Made by a program: the position numbers and the translations under genes | Shown here: piece by piece, positions 8,778-18,970 of the stretch | Layout: every line of letters begins with the position of its first letter | Numbering within the stretch: position 1 is the first letter of the stretch | NCBI GenBank assembly: GCA_903833595.1 | Contig: CAILFU010000159.1 | Span: 1 to 21,170, forward strand | Direction of reading: 5' to 3' | DNA length: 21,170 bases | Origin: an uncultured Pseudomonadota bacterium | GTDB lineage: Bacteria; Pseudomonadota; Gammaproteobacteria; Burkholderiales; Methylophilaceae | The notes under the pieces: model-generated | Databases searched by the model: none | Told to the model about the DNA's origin: nothing | The model's input: the letters and a program-made list of their open reading frames with translations, nothing else

Positions 8778-10097
8778 TTAATTAATAATTACTTTAGTGA
8801 GCATTTGCTTAGTCGTGAGTAGTGAATAACTAAGCACATAAATTGAGCATGATGCGAGACATAGCGCCATTAGCATGATGGTTGAATGCATAAATATCAC
8901 TGCTAAACCTGCATTGATAATTGTGGCGCCCCATATATAAGGGGCTACCCGATTGTTCCTGATACGCATTTTTTTAGGACACGTATTCATGAATTGACAG
9001 GCGGTTCCATCGTGATTGATTTGTATAGCTTGATGCACGCACGGCTTAAATTGATTTCTATTGAGCAATGATTTAAAAATAATCTGATGCAGATGACTGG
9101 CATCTGGCGCTGTGTTAGCAGTTTTATGAATAAATGTTCGTCGGAACATCGTAAAAAGCGTCTCAAACACTGGATAGATGAAGATGGCTAATGGAAACCA
9201 TGGGGAAACTGTTGGATTATGGTGCAATAACAGCAAGCAAAGTTCTGCTGAAATAAACCCGATAAAGTACGACCCGCCGTCCCCCAAGAAGATTTTTCCG
9301 CGCGGCCAATTCCATACTAAAAATCCAAGAATAGCGCCAATCATAATGATGCTGATGAAAACAATCATTGCATCATTCACCAGAAAAGCAGCTATTGTGA
9401 TGGCGGCGAGTGCGACAACCATCACACCACCGACTAAGCCATTGTAACCATCGATCAAATTGATGGCGTTGGTGAATCCCCCGACGGCAAACAATGTAAA
9501 TAGCAACGAGATTACTTCAATTGAAAGCAGCTTATCCATCCAGACTACATCTACATGATAAAGAATGAGTCCTTTATCAATAAGGCAAGCTGCGATTGCC
9601 GCCGAAACCATGGTAAGCAACAGGCGCTGTGCAACCCCTACATTCTTAAAGATGTCTTCAGCTAATCCACCAAAAAATACAGGAATGGAGGCCATGATTA
9701 ATGGCATGAAGTAGAAATTTTTATATAGCCGCGTCTCTTCAAATAAGCCCGATAAGACACATCCTGATAATGCGGCTATAAAAATGGCTACGCCAGCAAT
9801 TCTAGGTGTAGGCTCTAAATGAAATGCTTGTACCTTTCCAGTAAAAGGATCGGCAGTTAAATGCTGATGAAGATGTGCATAGCGCACAATAAAATCACAG
9901 ATGAGAAAGCTGACTATAGCTGCTAGCATAAAAACCAAGATGATATTGCCTATCATCGAAGCATTCACTGACATCAGATTATCAGGATGGCTATTTGTAT
10001 CCTTAATAAGCGGGTCGCAGAATAAGAATAGTGATATCACAACCACGAGAGTTGCAATTAAAAGAGGTTTAGATAATTTATTGTAGTGCTTATTCAT
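8778..10097 (-). CDS. Polyprenyl-phosphate sugar-1-phosphate transferase (glycosyltransferase family 4, WecA/MraY/WbpL-like)
   Basis: It is a polytopic membrane protein with NAINLIDGYNGL (the NxxNxxDGxDGL motif), FLGDGGSYFIGF (the GDxGS motif), LEPTPRIAG and PDASHLHQ. It carries ED where WecA has DD (LAEDIF). Confidence 0.88.
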   Translation of the reverse strand: MNKHYNKLSKPLLIATLVVVISLFLFCDPLIKDTNSHPDNLMSVNASMIGNIILVFMLAAIVSFLICDFIVRYAHLHQHLTADPFTGKVQAFHLEPTPRIAGVAIFIAALSGCVLSGLFEETRLYKNFYFMPLIMASIPVFFGGLAEDIFKNVGVAQRLLLTMVSAAIAACLIDKGLILYHVDVVWMDKLLSIEVISLLFTLFAVGGFTNAINLIDGYNGLVGGVMVVALAAITIAAFLVNDAMIVFISIIMIGAILGFLVWNWPRGKIFLGDGGSYFIGFISAELCLLLLHHNPTVSPWFPLAIFIYPVFETLFTMFRRTFIHKTANTAPDASHLHQIIFKSLLNRNQFKPCVHQAIQINHDGTACQFMNTCPKKMRIRNNRVAPYIWGATIINAGLAVIFMHSTIMLMALCLASCSIYVLSYSLLTTKQMLTKVIIN

Positions 10098-15440: not shown

Positions 15441-15475
15441 GCTTACACGCTATTTCATCGCTAGGATGTCAATGG

Positions 15476-15613
15476 CTGCTTTGGGTCGGTAGCCACTAAA
15501 CTCAATGTCTGCTTTGAGGTAGATCTAATTCACTTATCCTTTACCTAAAAAATAGTTTGCTATAAAGCAGACGGATATAAATCGGACTTGGGGCACAGAA
15601 AGAGACATTCATT
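15476..15613 (+). repeat. REP/MITE-like structured repeat, full-length copy B
   Basis: It is about 93 percent identical by hand count to 18834-18970. It has an internal 9-bp inverted repeat GTCTGCTTT...AAAGCAGAC and terminal AATGTCT...AGACATT symmetry. Confidence 0.9.
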
Positions 15614-15720
15614 AGTAGATTAACTTAGTAATTTAAGATAAATTGTGCATGTCAATGGAAGTAATTTACTACTAGTAATACAATGAAATTTTTGTAGGCA
15701 ATCTACTAAAGAGGAACATC

Positions 15721-16173
15721 ATGAACAGAAGAGAAGTTTTGCTAAGAGGTGTTGCGCTAGCTGGTGCAGCATTCGTTGGGCGTGCTCAGGCAACAGAGAT
15801 GAAAATGGATCATACACATCATCATGATATGGCTGCAATGTCTGCCAATGCTGGATTAGTCTCTGCAGCGGCCGATTGCATACAAAAGGGCCAAGTCTGC
15901 CTGAATCACTGTTTATTTCTATTGGGACAGGGCGATAAAGATATGGCAGCATGTGCCAAAAGCGTCAACCAAATGCTCGCTCTATGTGGTGCGTTGCAGC
16001 AACTGGCTAATCAAGAATCTACTTATCTGCCTAAATTAGCCAGTTTGGCGATGGACGCATGCAAAAAATGCGAAGACGAATGCAAAAAACATGCAAAAAA
16101 ACACGAGGCCTGTAAAGCCTGCGGTGAAAGCTGCGCGGCGTGTGCCAAAGAATGTAAAAAAATAGCAGCTTAA
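15721..16173 (+). CDS. Tat-exported Cys-rich four-helix-bundle copper storage protein (Csp1-like, DUF326 family)
   Basis: It has a twin-arginine signal (MNRREVLLRGVALAGAAFVGRAQA). A His/Met-rich stretch follows (MKMDHTHHHDMAAM). I count 13 Cys in the mature part, spaced helically, ending ACKACGESCAACAKECKKIAA. This closely parallels the Csp1 C-terminus as I recall it. Confidence 0.85.
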   Translation: MNRREVLLRGVALAGAAFVGRAQATEMKMDHTHHHDMAAMSANAGLVSAAADCIQKGQVCLNHCLFLLGQGDKDMAACAKSVNQMLALCGALQQLANQESTYLPKLASLAMDACKKCEDECKKHAKKHEACKACGESCAACAKECKKIAA

Positions 16174-16250
16174 AACTAGTCTAATTACCATAAATTATGG
16201 CTGTTAGACTCGCTGTAATAATTTAGAGGTTTAGTCGCATATAAACAATT

Positions 16251-16276
16251 AGGCACCTTAGGGTGTCTTTTGTTTG
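16251..16276 (+). terminator. Rho-independent terminator after the csp-like gene
   Basis: The stem is AGGCACC-ttag-GGTGTCT (7 bp including one G-U pair), followed by TTTGTTT. Confidence 0.6.
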
Positions 16277-16278
16277 GT

Positions 16279-16400
16279 GCGACTATCACTTATAGGTCGG
16301 TAGTGACGATTCTCGGTATAGGCTTTGAAGAAAGCTGATTATTAGGCCAAATAGCAGACGATCAAAAACTTCACTCAAGGCCATAAGCAGACTATTAATG
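16279..16400 (+). repeat. REP/MITE-like repeat, diverged copy D
   Basis: GTGCGACT..TATAGGTCGGTAGTGAC parallels GTGCGACT..TATGGGTCGGAAGCCAC at 18824-18853. The 3' end GGCCATAAGCAGAC matches the family. Confidence 0.5.
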
Positions 16401-16500
16401 AAGGAATAGCTTAATCAACATTAAGGAGATTGATATGGGTAAATTTAGCCTATACAGCGCTCAGGAAAAGCTAATTTAGCTAAATCGTACCCAGCGAACC

Positions 16501-18708
16501 TTAAAGCTTCAGCGTTAGCCCCACATTTACTGAGCGACCCATTCCTGGAACCGCAGTACCCCAACCTATAGGTGAGTTTTGCATACCCATGGTTGCACCT
16601 TGGCCTACGTAAGCACCACCTAGCGGTAAGTAATAATGCTTATCAAACAAGTTTTCAACGCCAAAATCTAAACGGGCTTGCTTCCAGTTATAGCTAGAAC
16701 GCAAGTTAATTAAACTATAACCGGCCGTCTTAATTTCGTTACGCGCATCTGAGGTGTGGTCTTTGGCTTTCACCATCTGCAGTTCCAACGCACTATCCCA
16801 AGCTTGGTAATTATGCGTCAAAGTCAATTTACCATTGAGCGGCATGATGTTATACAAATCATCGCCAGTAGCGCGGTTTTCGCCATTGGTATAGTTAAGT
16901 AGGCCTTTTAATGCAAATAGACCAGCGCCAGTTTGTGCCAACGGCATATGACCAGTTACATCTAAACCATATAGGCGCGCCGACTGGTTGGTGTAACGCA
17001 AGCTTGTGAATGCATTTGTAGTTGGCGTTAATTGAACCGCATCAATGTAATCAGTCACATGAGTATAATATGGCGTGGCTTTCAACTCCCAGTCACGGTT
17101 GGCAGCGTGCCAATCTAACGTGGTAGAAACGGTATAAGCTTTTTCAGACTTAAGATTAACATCCCCCAAATAACCATTACCGTCACCCACAGTGTTATTC
17201 ATAATCGTCATCATATCGGCCGTAGACCAAGTATAACGCTCATATAAATTGGGTGATCGTACCTTACGCGCCACACCAAATTCAAGGTCAGTGTTAGGAT
17301 TAGCGACATAACGACCCATAGCCGTCACATCCCAATTATTATCTGTTTTATTACGGTCAGAGTTATTAAATGCAACAGCATCACGCTTTTGATTCATCAT
17401 ATCCATACCACTAATAACTATAGGTGCTGTAGATGAGTTGTAGCCATGCACCATACCGGCACTAGTTTTAACTTGTTCATAACGCAGTCCAGCCAACGTA
17501 GTAAAATCTGCTGTTATGCGTTTTTCCCACTCTGCGAAGACTGCGCTGCGTTCACGTTCACCATCGTTAATATTGATGAAATCATTCGGCCCCATTCCCA
17601 TACTGCCAACCACAGCAGGCCACCAATCTTGCAAAGCATAGTGTTGGTATTCTGTACCTAGACGCAATACATCTTGTTCAGACAACTTAACGTCTCCTTT
17701 AACTGAAACCCCAGTCGTCTTACCTTTAGTGTTCATCGGCATACCCTGAGTAGTATTACCAACGGTATAAAGGAATTTTTTATCAGGCCCAAAATCCATG
17801 TAATGGTCAACAGTTTCGTTATAAGCCCTGGCCTCTAAGGCGCCCCAATCATACTCACCTAGATAACGAAGGTTAATGCGTTTTTGCTCATTGTCTAGCA
17901 AGTCCATACGTTGATTAGGATACAGTTGCTCAGGCATGTTTTGGTAACCAAACTTCGCTTCAACCAAATGATTGCCACTCTTAAACGCTAAGCCCAGCGT
18001 TTGATTTCTGGTTTCATACGCGGTAGATCCAACTTCATCCAACGCTAAGGTATGGCCTGTGCGCCCAGTGACGTTTGTAGTTTTAAAGTTTTTACCGGCC
18101 TCATAGTTGTCTGCTTTACTAGTTGAACCACTGTAGTTAGCGCTGAATGTCTCGGTGGCAAAGGTGGCAGATATATTGGCGCCTTGTGCGTTATTATTAC
18201 TGCGATAAAAACTACCAATTTGACCTTTCACCAAATTGCCTGCACCGGCAGCGGCAAATTCAGGCTTAGCCGAATTAACAATAATCGTACCGCCCAAACT
18301 ATCGCCACCTACACTCACCGGCGTGATGCCAGCATAGACTTTAATGTTATCGATATTGGTAGGATCAATATAAGACAAAGGTGGATTCATGTGGTTAGGG
18401 CAAGAGGCGATTAAATCCATACCATCCAACTTAACGCGCACTCTATCATCAGCCAAACCATGAATAGCCGGTAGGCTTGAGACCCCTCCAGCACGATACA
18501 AACTCACACCAGGTTCATCAGCTAACAACGAAGCGCTGTCACTAGTGTTCAATGCAGACGGGTTGATATCAGCGATTTTCTCCGCTGTCACCTCAATACT
18601 AGGTAAGACTAATTCTTCTGCATATGCCGTATAGGTTAATCCGCCTAAAATGCATGGCGTTAGAATGCTGGAAATAATTAAGTGTTTTTTTGAATAAATG
18701 AACTGCAT
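16501..18708 (-). CDS. oprC: TonB-dependent outer-membrane copper receptor (OprC/NosA family)
   Basis: It has a signal peptide (..TYTAYA-EE) and a plug plus 22-strand-type architecture. CPNHM (C103/M107, codons at 18400-18402 and 18388-18390) and HYM (H302/M304, codons at 17803-17805 and 17797-17799) reproduce the CxxxM plus HxM copper site described for OprC. Confidence 0.85.
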   Translation of the reverse strand: MQFIYSKKHLIISSILTPCILGGLTYTAYAEELVLPSIEVTAEKIADINPSALNTSDSASLLADEPGVSLYRAGGVSSLPAIHGLADDRVRVKLDGMDLIASCPNHMNPPLSYIDPTNIDNIKVYAGITPVSVGGDSLGGTIIVNSAKPEFAAAGAGNLVKGQIGSFYRSNNNAQGANISATFATETFSANYSGSTSKADNYEAGKNFKTTNVTGRTGHTLALDEVGSTAYETRNQTLGLAFKSGNHLVEAKFGYQNMPEQLYPNQRMDLLDNEQKRINLRYLGEYDWGALEARAYNETVDHYMDFGPDKKFLYTVGNTTQGMPMNTKGKTTGVSVKGDVKLSEQDVLRLGTEYQHYALQDWWPAVVGSMGMGPNDFININDGERERSAVFAEWEKRITADFTTLAGLRYEQVKTSAGMVHGYNSSTAPIVISGMDMMNQKRDAVAFNNSDRNKTDNNWDVTAMGRYVANPNTDLEFGVARKVRSPNLYERYTWSTADMMTIMNNTVGDGNGYLGDVNLKSEKAYTVSTTLDWHAANRDWELKATPYYTHVTDYIDAVQLTPTTNAFTSLRYTNQSARLYGLDVTGHMPLAQTGAGLFALKGLLNYTNGENRATGDDLYNIMPLNGKLTLTHNYQAWDSALELQMVKAKDHTSDARNEIKTAGYSLINLRSSYNWKQARLDFGVENLFDKHYYLPLGGAYVGQGATMGMQNSPIGWGTAVPGMGRSVNVGLTLKL

Positions 18709-18833
18709 GGCCTTACCTTTAATAATAGAATTACTTAAAGATACATTTTATAGGCACTATTGCAGCTTGAGAATGTGGCATATTGTCGCACTTGAATCCA
18801 GTTAAACGACGTCCATAGTTTTTGTGCGACTGT

Positions 18834-18970
18834 CTGCTATGGGTCGGAAGCCACTGAATTCAATGTCTGCTTTGAGGCAGATCTAATTCACTTATCCTTT
18901 ACCTAAAAAATAGTTTGCTATAAAGCAGACGGATATAAATCGGACTTAGGGCCAATAAGAGACATTCGTT
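18834..18970 (+). repeat. REP/MITE-like structured repeat, full-length copy C
   Basis: See copy B. It lies between the divergent receptor and kinase genes. Confidence 0.9.

Follow-up and report, generated by a model that had tools for sequence, protein, structure and literature searches.

Does a gene for an exported copper storage protein that lies beside a gene for an outer-membrane receptor of the OprC type mark a unit for the uptake and buffering of copper? This question was raised by contig CAILFU010000159.1 (GenBank assembly GCA_903833595.1) of an uncultured member of the Methylophilaceae, positions 1 to 21,170 of which were analysed and are called the window here. Its csp1 gene and a gene for a TonB-dependent receptor are convergent and separated by 327 bp, and the initial annotation had read them as an uptake-and-buffer unit. 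Our comparison with other genomes leads to a different answer. The two genes do not form a conserved unit; supported instead is a looser link, namely the frequent location of Csp1 genes within uptake loci that are TonB-dependent and annotated for copper.

Two samples of loci were used for the comparison. A scan with an alignment of 11 Csp1 sequences, employing one genome per species, resulted in 80 loci (species loci) with Csp1 proteins at 48-89% identity. The receptor-side sample comprised 80 metagenome loci whose receptors are 52-100% identical to that of the window. Conservation of receptor residues was read from 21 homologues with identities down to 51%. The closest complete genome was that of KH-45, in which Csp1 is 89% and the receptor 88% identical.

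The 150-amino-acid (aa) protein is a Csp1-family copper storage protein with a signal for twin-arginine translocation (Tat). It matched TIGR04401 ('Csp1 family four helix bundle copper storage protein') over residues 1-148 with 164 bits at a cut-off of 100. PF03860 is the precomputed assignment of its protein cluster; a direct Pfam scan at E<=0.01 gave no match to this family. The best solved relative was Csp1 of Methylosinus trichosporium (PDB 5FJD, E 9e-22), and all 13 Cys residues (positions 53, 60, 64, 78, 89, 114, 117, 121, 131, 134, 138, 141 and 145) shared columns with Cys residues of 5FJD in the HMMER alignment. An AlphaFold2 model based on 38 homologues contained helices at residues 44-69, 75-97, 103-122 and 129-148, with predicted local distance difference test (pLDDT) values of 93-98 over residues 41-150. 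In Foldseek, this model was superposed on 5FJD, 5FJE and 8R4L, with apo- and Cu(I)-Csp1 among them, with template modelling (TM) scores of 0.94-0.96 and root-mean-square deviations of 0.8-1.0 Å; cytosolic Csp3 proteins ranked after them. The profile score, the 13 aligned Cys residues and the superposition at about 1 Å thus bear out the exported Csp1-type copper store of the initial annotation.

The leader of the protein consists of MNRREVLL, a hydrophobic stretch and AQA. Export via Tat is predicted from its twin-arginine motif; across 50 diverse homologues, R3 was invariant and R4 conserved to at least 90%. Among 120 close homologues, 117 had RR near the N-terminus and 116 had exactly 13 Cys residues. 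Past the leader, residues 27-40 form the His-rich segment MKMDHTHHHDMAAM, which had been taken for an 'extra' His/Met-rich tag. A His cluster follows the signal peptide in 113 of the 120 close homologues, and the 50 diverse family members have the consensus HxHHH at this place; the 'tag' is therefore a trait of the family.

The 735-aa protein encoded on the other side is a TonB-dependent receptor and a distant relative of OprC, not its orthologue, with an overall identity of about 18%. It consists of a signal peptide followed by the TonB box LPSIEVTA, and of plug (PF07715) and barrel (PF00593) domains. The plug carries CPNHM (C103/M107) and the barrel DHYMD (H302/M304) and GMPM (322-325). In the entire receptor there are two Cys residues, one CxxxM (C103-PNH-M107) and one HxM (H302-Y-M304). 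C103, N105, H106, M107, M268, H302, M304 and G322-M323-P324-M325 were invariant in the 21 homologues (identity of at least 51%), and the CxxxM of the plug was present in all 113 full-length homologues. Its 24 Met residues include those of a Met-rich loop at 366-373 (GSMGMGPN), and Gallionella homologues carry MMPMMNMM in the corresponding extracellular loop.

When the single sequence was searched against the PDB, OprC was the sole family matched (E 6e-17). With a profile of the 21 sequences, OprC was found at E 4e-28 and the next family, FrpB, at 8e-10. The plug motifs asCPNhMnpPlSYI of the receptor and gaCPNrMdaPtSYI of OprC were aligned by HMMER without a gap, so that C103 and M107 correspond to Cys143 and Met147, the copper ligands of OprC (PMC8610252). 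The best 28 Foldseek matches of the receptor model were all OprC (E about 1e-27, TM 0.72-0.74), followed by Cir, FrpB, PhuR and ZnuD at about 1e-22. Equivalence of the barrel residues to the OprC site is favoured by three points, namely the invariance of H302 and M304, their position at the top of a confidently modelled barrel strand (residues 289-305), and a Smith-Waterman alignment with the OprC sequence of PMC8610252 S7 Fig that was collinear from the plug through to DHYMD/DHIMD, the barrel part of which alone reached z=0.7 against shuffles and was not significant. The protein is classed as OprC-like, and its specificity for copper is probable.

Control regions and transcripts were analysed for both genes. 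Directly before the -35 hexamer of the receptor promoter, the sequence TGCGACAATATGCCACA deviates by one mismatch from TGCGRCA-N3-TGYCGCA; it was the sole match in the window, with 0.17 expected by chance. In 13 further OprC-like loci, such a box precedes the start codon by 73-100 nucleotides (nt). Over all loci then retrieved, 59 matches with at most one mismatch were counted, versus 1.15 in shuffles. Of 76 metagenome receptor loci, 41 also contained the box. The receptor box also fits GCGNC-N5-GNCGC, the form known for RegA/PrrA sites. Because this putative operator of the RegA/PrrA type is conserved and abuts the -35, a RegB/RegA-like redox system probably controls expression of the receptor. 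RegA-like (NF033791, 194 bits, cut-off 250) and RegB-like (NF033792, 250 bits, cut-off 350) genes were found beside csp1 in other Methylotenera and next to the receptor gene in 7 of the 80 metagenome loci; none was detected within the window. An inverted repeat of 7 bp (GTCGCAC...GTGCGAC, arms separated by 32 nt) was also noticed on the minus strand at 18791-18830, just upstream of the box and partly overlapping it. Since the right arm lies within the box, the left arm may be a degenerate half-site.

Alignment of the regions upstream of csp1 showed only a promoter-like pattern, TCAATGG...TACAAT, and the palindrome TACTAGTA, the latter in common with the closest complete genome. The palindrome followed by TACAAT occupies 15672-15688 in the window and 9943-9965 in locus L005. 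It is a possible operator overlapping the -10 and matched no known site.

In one lake metatranscriptome run (X1), a contig covered csp1 at 15664-16237 and ended in adapter sequence just before the terminator-like hairpin, and further contigs covered the receptor gene at 16459-18668. No RNA was found in this run over 16238-16371 or over the flanks; depth of these contigs is not a measure of expression level. Because the RNA contigs are separate, both genes are expressed in situ and form separate transcripts.

The looser link was evident from the neighbourhoods of csp1. In the 80 species loci, the commonest clustered neighbours were TonB (22), ExbB (20), ExbD (17) and a second receptor family (16). 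In 30 of these loci, a receptor gene lay no more than 3 kb from csp1, or tonB, exbB or exbD no more than 1.5 kb from it. Receptor density was 0.92 per 10 kb at distances of up to 1 kb from csp1 versus 0.04-0.3 beyond 3 kb. Metagenome-assembled genomes of Gallionella (L009:114-12505, L011:1846-11219) contain same-strand islands of about 11 kb with the order OprC-like receptor, second receptor, DUF4198-like/Fer4 membrane protein or PepSY_TM, TonB-ExbB-ExbD, Csp1, TonB-(ExbB)-ExbD. In other Methylotenera (L016:7935-12793, L032:7872-12925; also L015 and L022), csp1 is divergent from the genes of a RegB-like/RegA-like two-component pair and is followed, past a RegA-type box, by a receptor of a different family (about 760 aa) and tonB-exbBD. 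The idea of copper uptake coupled to a store thus persists in a weaker form, carried by the 30 of 80 loci, and falls for the specific pair.

No publication linking Csp1 to TonB-dependent loci was found in the literature. The synteny list of copper transporter operons names Sco, PCuAC, YcnI, CopC, MbnPH and AhpC, and Csp is not in it (PMC9426467, PMC13038864). The link is likewise absent from the published synteny surveys PMC9426467 and PMC6769254, and we regard it as a useful but modest lead.

Two other neighbourhoods were noted. In Dechloromonas/Azonexus (L062:8265-9881, L066:1942-3198 and similar loci), csp1 adjoins genes for the cd1 nitrite reductase NirS and for haem d1 synthesis (NirJ), which suggests a role linked to denitrification in these Rhodocyclales. 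In L091:1-7247, an operon resembling that of soluble methane monooxygenase (sMMO; MeMO_Hyd_G, MmoD, reductase, Cpn60/MmoG) is immediately followed downstream by an OprC-like receptor that is 67% identical and has a perfect RegA-type box. A copper-type importer is thereby placed beside genes of a copper-repressed methane monooxygenase.

Taken together, we give a slightly better than even chance to the reading that the window contains two copper-handling genes which are separately transcribed and loosely coupled in one supply route, and which are not an obligate pair. The receptor would most likely capture ionic copper at Cys103/Met107 of the plug and His302/Met304 of the barrel, fed by the Met-rich loops. 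Energised by TonB-ExbBD encoded elsewhere, it would release the copper to the periplasm. Csp1 would be exported in folded form via Tat, and its Cys-lined four-helix bundle would buffer or store periplasmic Cu(I), with a capacity that Methylosinus Csp1 suggests, by analogy, to be about 13 Cu per monomer. The copper held by Csp1 would later be supplied to envelope cuproenzymes. In this lake Methylotenera, to which the window is assigned by the names of its homologues, import and periplasmic capture would probably belong to the same route as separately controlled parts.

Several results weigh against this coupling. The specific pair is rare: of the 80 species loci, 7 had an OprC-like receptor at a distance of up to 10 kb from csp1, and in 3 it was adjacent. 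From the receptor side, Csp1 was found within 4 kb in 3 of the 80 metagenome loci, two of which represent the lineage of the window itself and one an independent case. Four receptor orthologues (66-88% identity) lie between coaX and birA, a housekeeping context without csp, and in KH-45 the two genes are 212 kb apart. With these numbers, the proposed uptake-and-buffer unit had to be given up. A RegA-type box upstream of csp1 was absent in the window and in other Methylotenera, and no operator was common to both genes. The convergent orientation, the terminator between the genes and the presence of the box at the receptor only give no sign of co-regulation. In addition, oprC of Pseudomonas is repressed by copper, whereas Csp1 of methanotrophs is induced by copper (PMC7558416), which would place an importer of the OprC type and Csp1 at opposite ends of the copper range.

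Further points on the same side concern the receptor. It scored 139.5 bits with TIGR01778, the equivalog profile for TonB-copper receptors, at a cut-off of 472.45, and is therefore OprC-like, not OprC. Of the OprC-type receptor described in the initial annotation, the aligned plug half and the closeness to OprC in sequence and fold were retained. The barrel of the AlphaFold2 model was well predicted; mean pLDDT was 60.7, and the plug was of low confidence with values below 50 over residues 1-142. The HxM region could not be aligned to OprC by HMMER, whether the full profile, one restricted to residues 215-420, or the OprC fragment from the supplement of PMC8610252 was used. Thus, of the two OprC site halves thought to be preserved, C103/M107 is confirmed by alignment, and the equivalence of H302/M304 is unproven.

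When the OprC-like receptor and Csp1 did occur in proximity, at least four arrangements were seen in different lineages, among them convergent (window, L072), tandem (L035, L043, L169) and with Sel1 between the genes (L089). The arrangement in the window was traced by comparison with related strains. In L003, which shares the cassette, a MoxR/VWA operon takes the place of the RTX adhesin flanking it in the window. Homology with other strains breaks at the left edge of repeat copy A, and homology with L003 stops inside repeat copy C, at 18871. L004 and L006 share just 15467-16227 (repeat plus csp1) and then continue with a different receptor operon; this breakpoint lies just before the partial repeat. 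Their Csp1 is identical to that of the window, and the same csp1 was hence found in three contexts. Since the cassette ends at repeats and its flanks vary, the adjacency of csp1 and receptor gene is a recent local arrangement in the Methylotenera strain complex, probably mediated by the repeats. The sensor kinase gene from 19149 onward was considered as a part of the cassette and was ruled out by the different flanks in other strains. The strain breakpoints lie exactly at the 122-nt repeats, which look like recombination joints shuffling modules among Methylotenera strains.

In L004 (875-3376) and L006, a convergent operon begins 50 bp past csp1. One of its products is a 157-aa protein that scored 118 bits with NF033672 ('copper uptake system-associated protein', cut-off 50); the other is a receptor of 648 aa, for which no relative was found in the PDB. 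The operon is preceded by a RegA-type box with one mismatch.

The repeats also form the basis of the alternative that survives best, although we consider it rather unlikely: the adjacency is without function, the 122-nt repeats shuffle modules, and Csp1 protects the envelope from excess copper and receives no imported copper. It agrees with the repeats at the cassette edges, the three contexts of one csp1, the normal coaX-birA location of the orthologous receptor and its distance from csp1 in KH-45, and with the separate transcripts and control regions. A protective function is in line with the copper sensitivity of a csp mutant of Neisseria gonorrhoeae; the same mutant also holds less copper at basal levels, which fits a role in storage or supply (PMC12510493). 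An adjacency without function is further opposed by the other neighbours of the same csp1, each of which is again a TonB-dependent receptor, in one case in an operon with a copper-uptake-associated protein. Over the 80 species, receptors are in about ten-fold excess next to csp1, and Csp1 is found inside TonB/PepSY_TM islands.

Import of a ligand other than copper, such as zinc (as by ZnuD), haem or a metallophore complex, to which the Cys, Met and His residues would be devoted, is improbable: the low overall identity to OprC, the scores with the TonB-hemin (147 bits) and haemoglobin/transferrin (145 bits) profiles, which exceed that with the TonB-copper profile and like it stay under their cut-offs, the HxM equivalence that profile alignment could not demonstrate, and ZnuD, FrpB and PhuR as next structural neighbours are in its favour, whereas the E-values of OprC are better than those of all other solved receptors by 5 (fold) to 18 (profile) orders of magnitude, CPNxM matches the OprC copper ligands residue for residue, the one conserved Cys, partnered by thioether and imidazole groups, the invariant GMPM and the Met-rich loops are soft-metal features, and receptor homologues adjoin PepSY_TM, Csp1 and an sMMO-like operon.

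Returning to the loosely coupled supply route, a more general proposal may be put forward tentatively. Tat-exported Csp1 might be the acceptor in the periplasm that has so far been missing for TonB-dependent import of copper, and a standard part of copper-acquisition islands in Nitrosomonadales (Methylophilaceae, Gallionellaceae) and some other Proteobacteria, with the window as the minimal two-gene form; we are inclined to doubt it. The periplasmic partner of OprC is stated to be unidentified (PMC8610252), and the routing of imported copper through the Gram-negative periplasm is an open question. If the proposal were true, such islands would consist of OprC-like and other receptors, TonB-ExbBD, PepSY_TM or Fer4 reductases, a RegB/RegA-type switch and Csp1, and imported copper would directly enter a high-capacity Cu(I) store before reaching respiratory and denitrification enzymes. 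As the two-gene unit itself is weak, the value of the locus is that of a hypothesis for experiments and not of a new system. Together with its relatives, it offers a testable candidate pairing in easily grown methylotrophs.

The features of the window are compiled in Table 1. The remaining open reading frames encode a subtilase, a small tyrosine recombinase, a glycosyltransferase, an RTX adhesin and a sensor kinase, as assigned by Pfam scans and precomputed annotation. In agreement with the initial annotation, neither source revealed genes for methane monooxygenase, multicopper oxidase or cop/cus proteins among the other open reading frames of the window.

Table 1. Positions of genes, control elements and repeats in the window
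Feature	Position	Strand	Basis or remark
csp1	15721-16173	+	150-aa open reading frame, 13 Cys, Tat-type leader
OprC-like TonB-dependent receptor gene	16501-18708	-	735-aa open reading frame; plug and barrel Pfam domains
Sigma-70-like receptor promoter TTCTCA-17-TAAAAT	18745-18773	-	Pattern scan; hexamers kept upstream of orthologues
Putative RegA/PrrA-type operator TGCGACA-ATA-TGCCACA	18774-18790		Abuts -35 of the receptor promoter
Terminator-like hairpin, then T-run	16251-16268	+	Pattern scan; after csp1
Cassette of csp1 and receptor gene, 3.4 kb	15468-18871		blastn, 98.6% identity to L003; flanks different
122-nt repeat copy A, left cassette edge	15473-15594	+	Direct repeat D1, 94% identical to 18831-18952
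Partial repeat copy, 34 nt, 71%	16295-16328	+	Repeat family D2, between csp1 and receptor gene
122-nt repeat copy C, right cassette edge	18831-18952	+	Direct repeat of 15473-15594

The locus was compared with known copper systems. The operons of the type CruR-CrtA(BfrG)-CrpH, which consist of an upstream open reading frame of the DUF2946 family, a TonB-dependent transporter and PepSY_TM, are likewise copper-related loci with a TonB-dependent transporter and are widespread in Beta- and Gammaproteobacteria (PMC9426467, PMC13038864). This comparison was made by locus description. Neither the DUF2946 reading frame nor PepSY_TM, both typical of these operons, is present in the window. A CruR reading frame before the receptor gene was ruled out, as the 440-bp upstream region contained no such open reading frame.

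OprC of Pseudomonas aeruginosa and NosA of P. stutzeri (6FOK; TIGR01778) share the receptor fold and the plug motif CPNxM with the window receptor. DHxMD tops a barrel strand of the receptor; one Met (M268) precedes it by about 34 residues, and others (M323/M325) follow it by 21-23 residues. In OprC, M286, H323/M325 and M339-343 are found at comparable spacings. The Met-rich loops resemble the 'methionine track' of OprC. OprC has a PepSY_TM partner gene (PA3789-like), whereas the window receptor is without one. Unlike OprC/NosA, the receptor has a RegA-type box in its control region rather than a site for a known copper regulator.

Work on Csp1 has so far been almost confined to methanotrophs and lately gonococci. 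The Csp of N. gonorrhoeae (NGO1701), to which the window Csp1 was likened by description, is also a periplasmic Csp1-type protein of a non-methanotrophic betaproteobacterium. It has been linked with the buffering of copper in the periplasm and possibly with the supply of cuproenzymes, and a connection to an outer-membrane importer was not reported (PMC12510493). Csp1 of Methylosinus trichosporium OB3b (5FJD/5FJE; TIGR04401, PF03860) is about 40% identical to the window Csp1 and shares with it the Tat leader, an unstructured His-rich N-terminus, the four-helix bundle and the 13 Cys columns. The host differs from Methylosinus, as it is a methylotroph but not a methanotroph, and no particulate methane monooxygenase is encoded in the window. 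At the mouth of the bundle, hCfeMlaMndasM of the Methylosinus protein corresponds to hClfLlgQgdkdM in the window Csp1. Two of the three Met residues are replaced by Leu67 and Gln70, whereas His63 and Met75 are retained.

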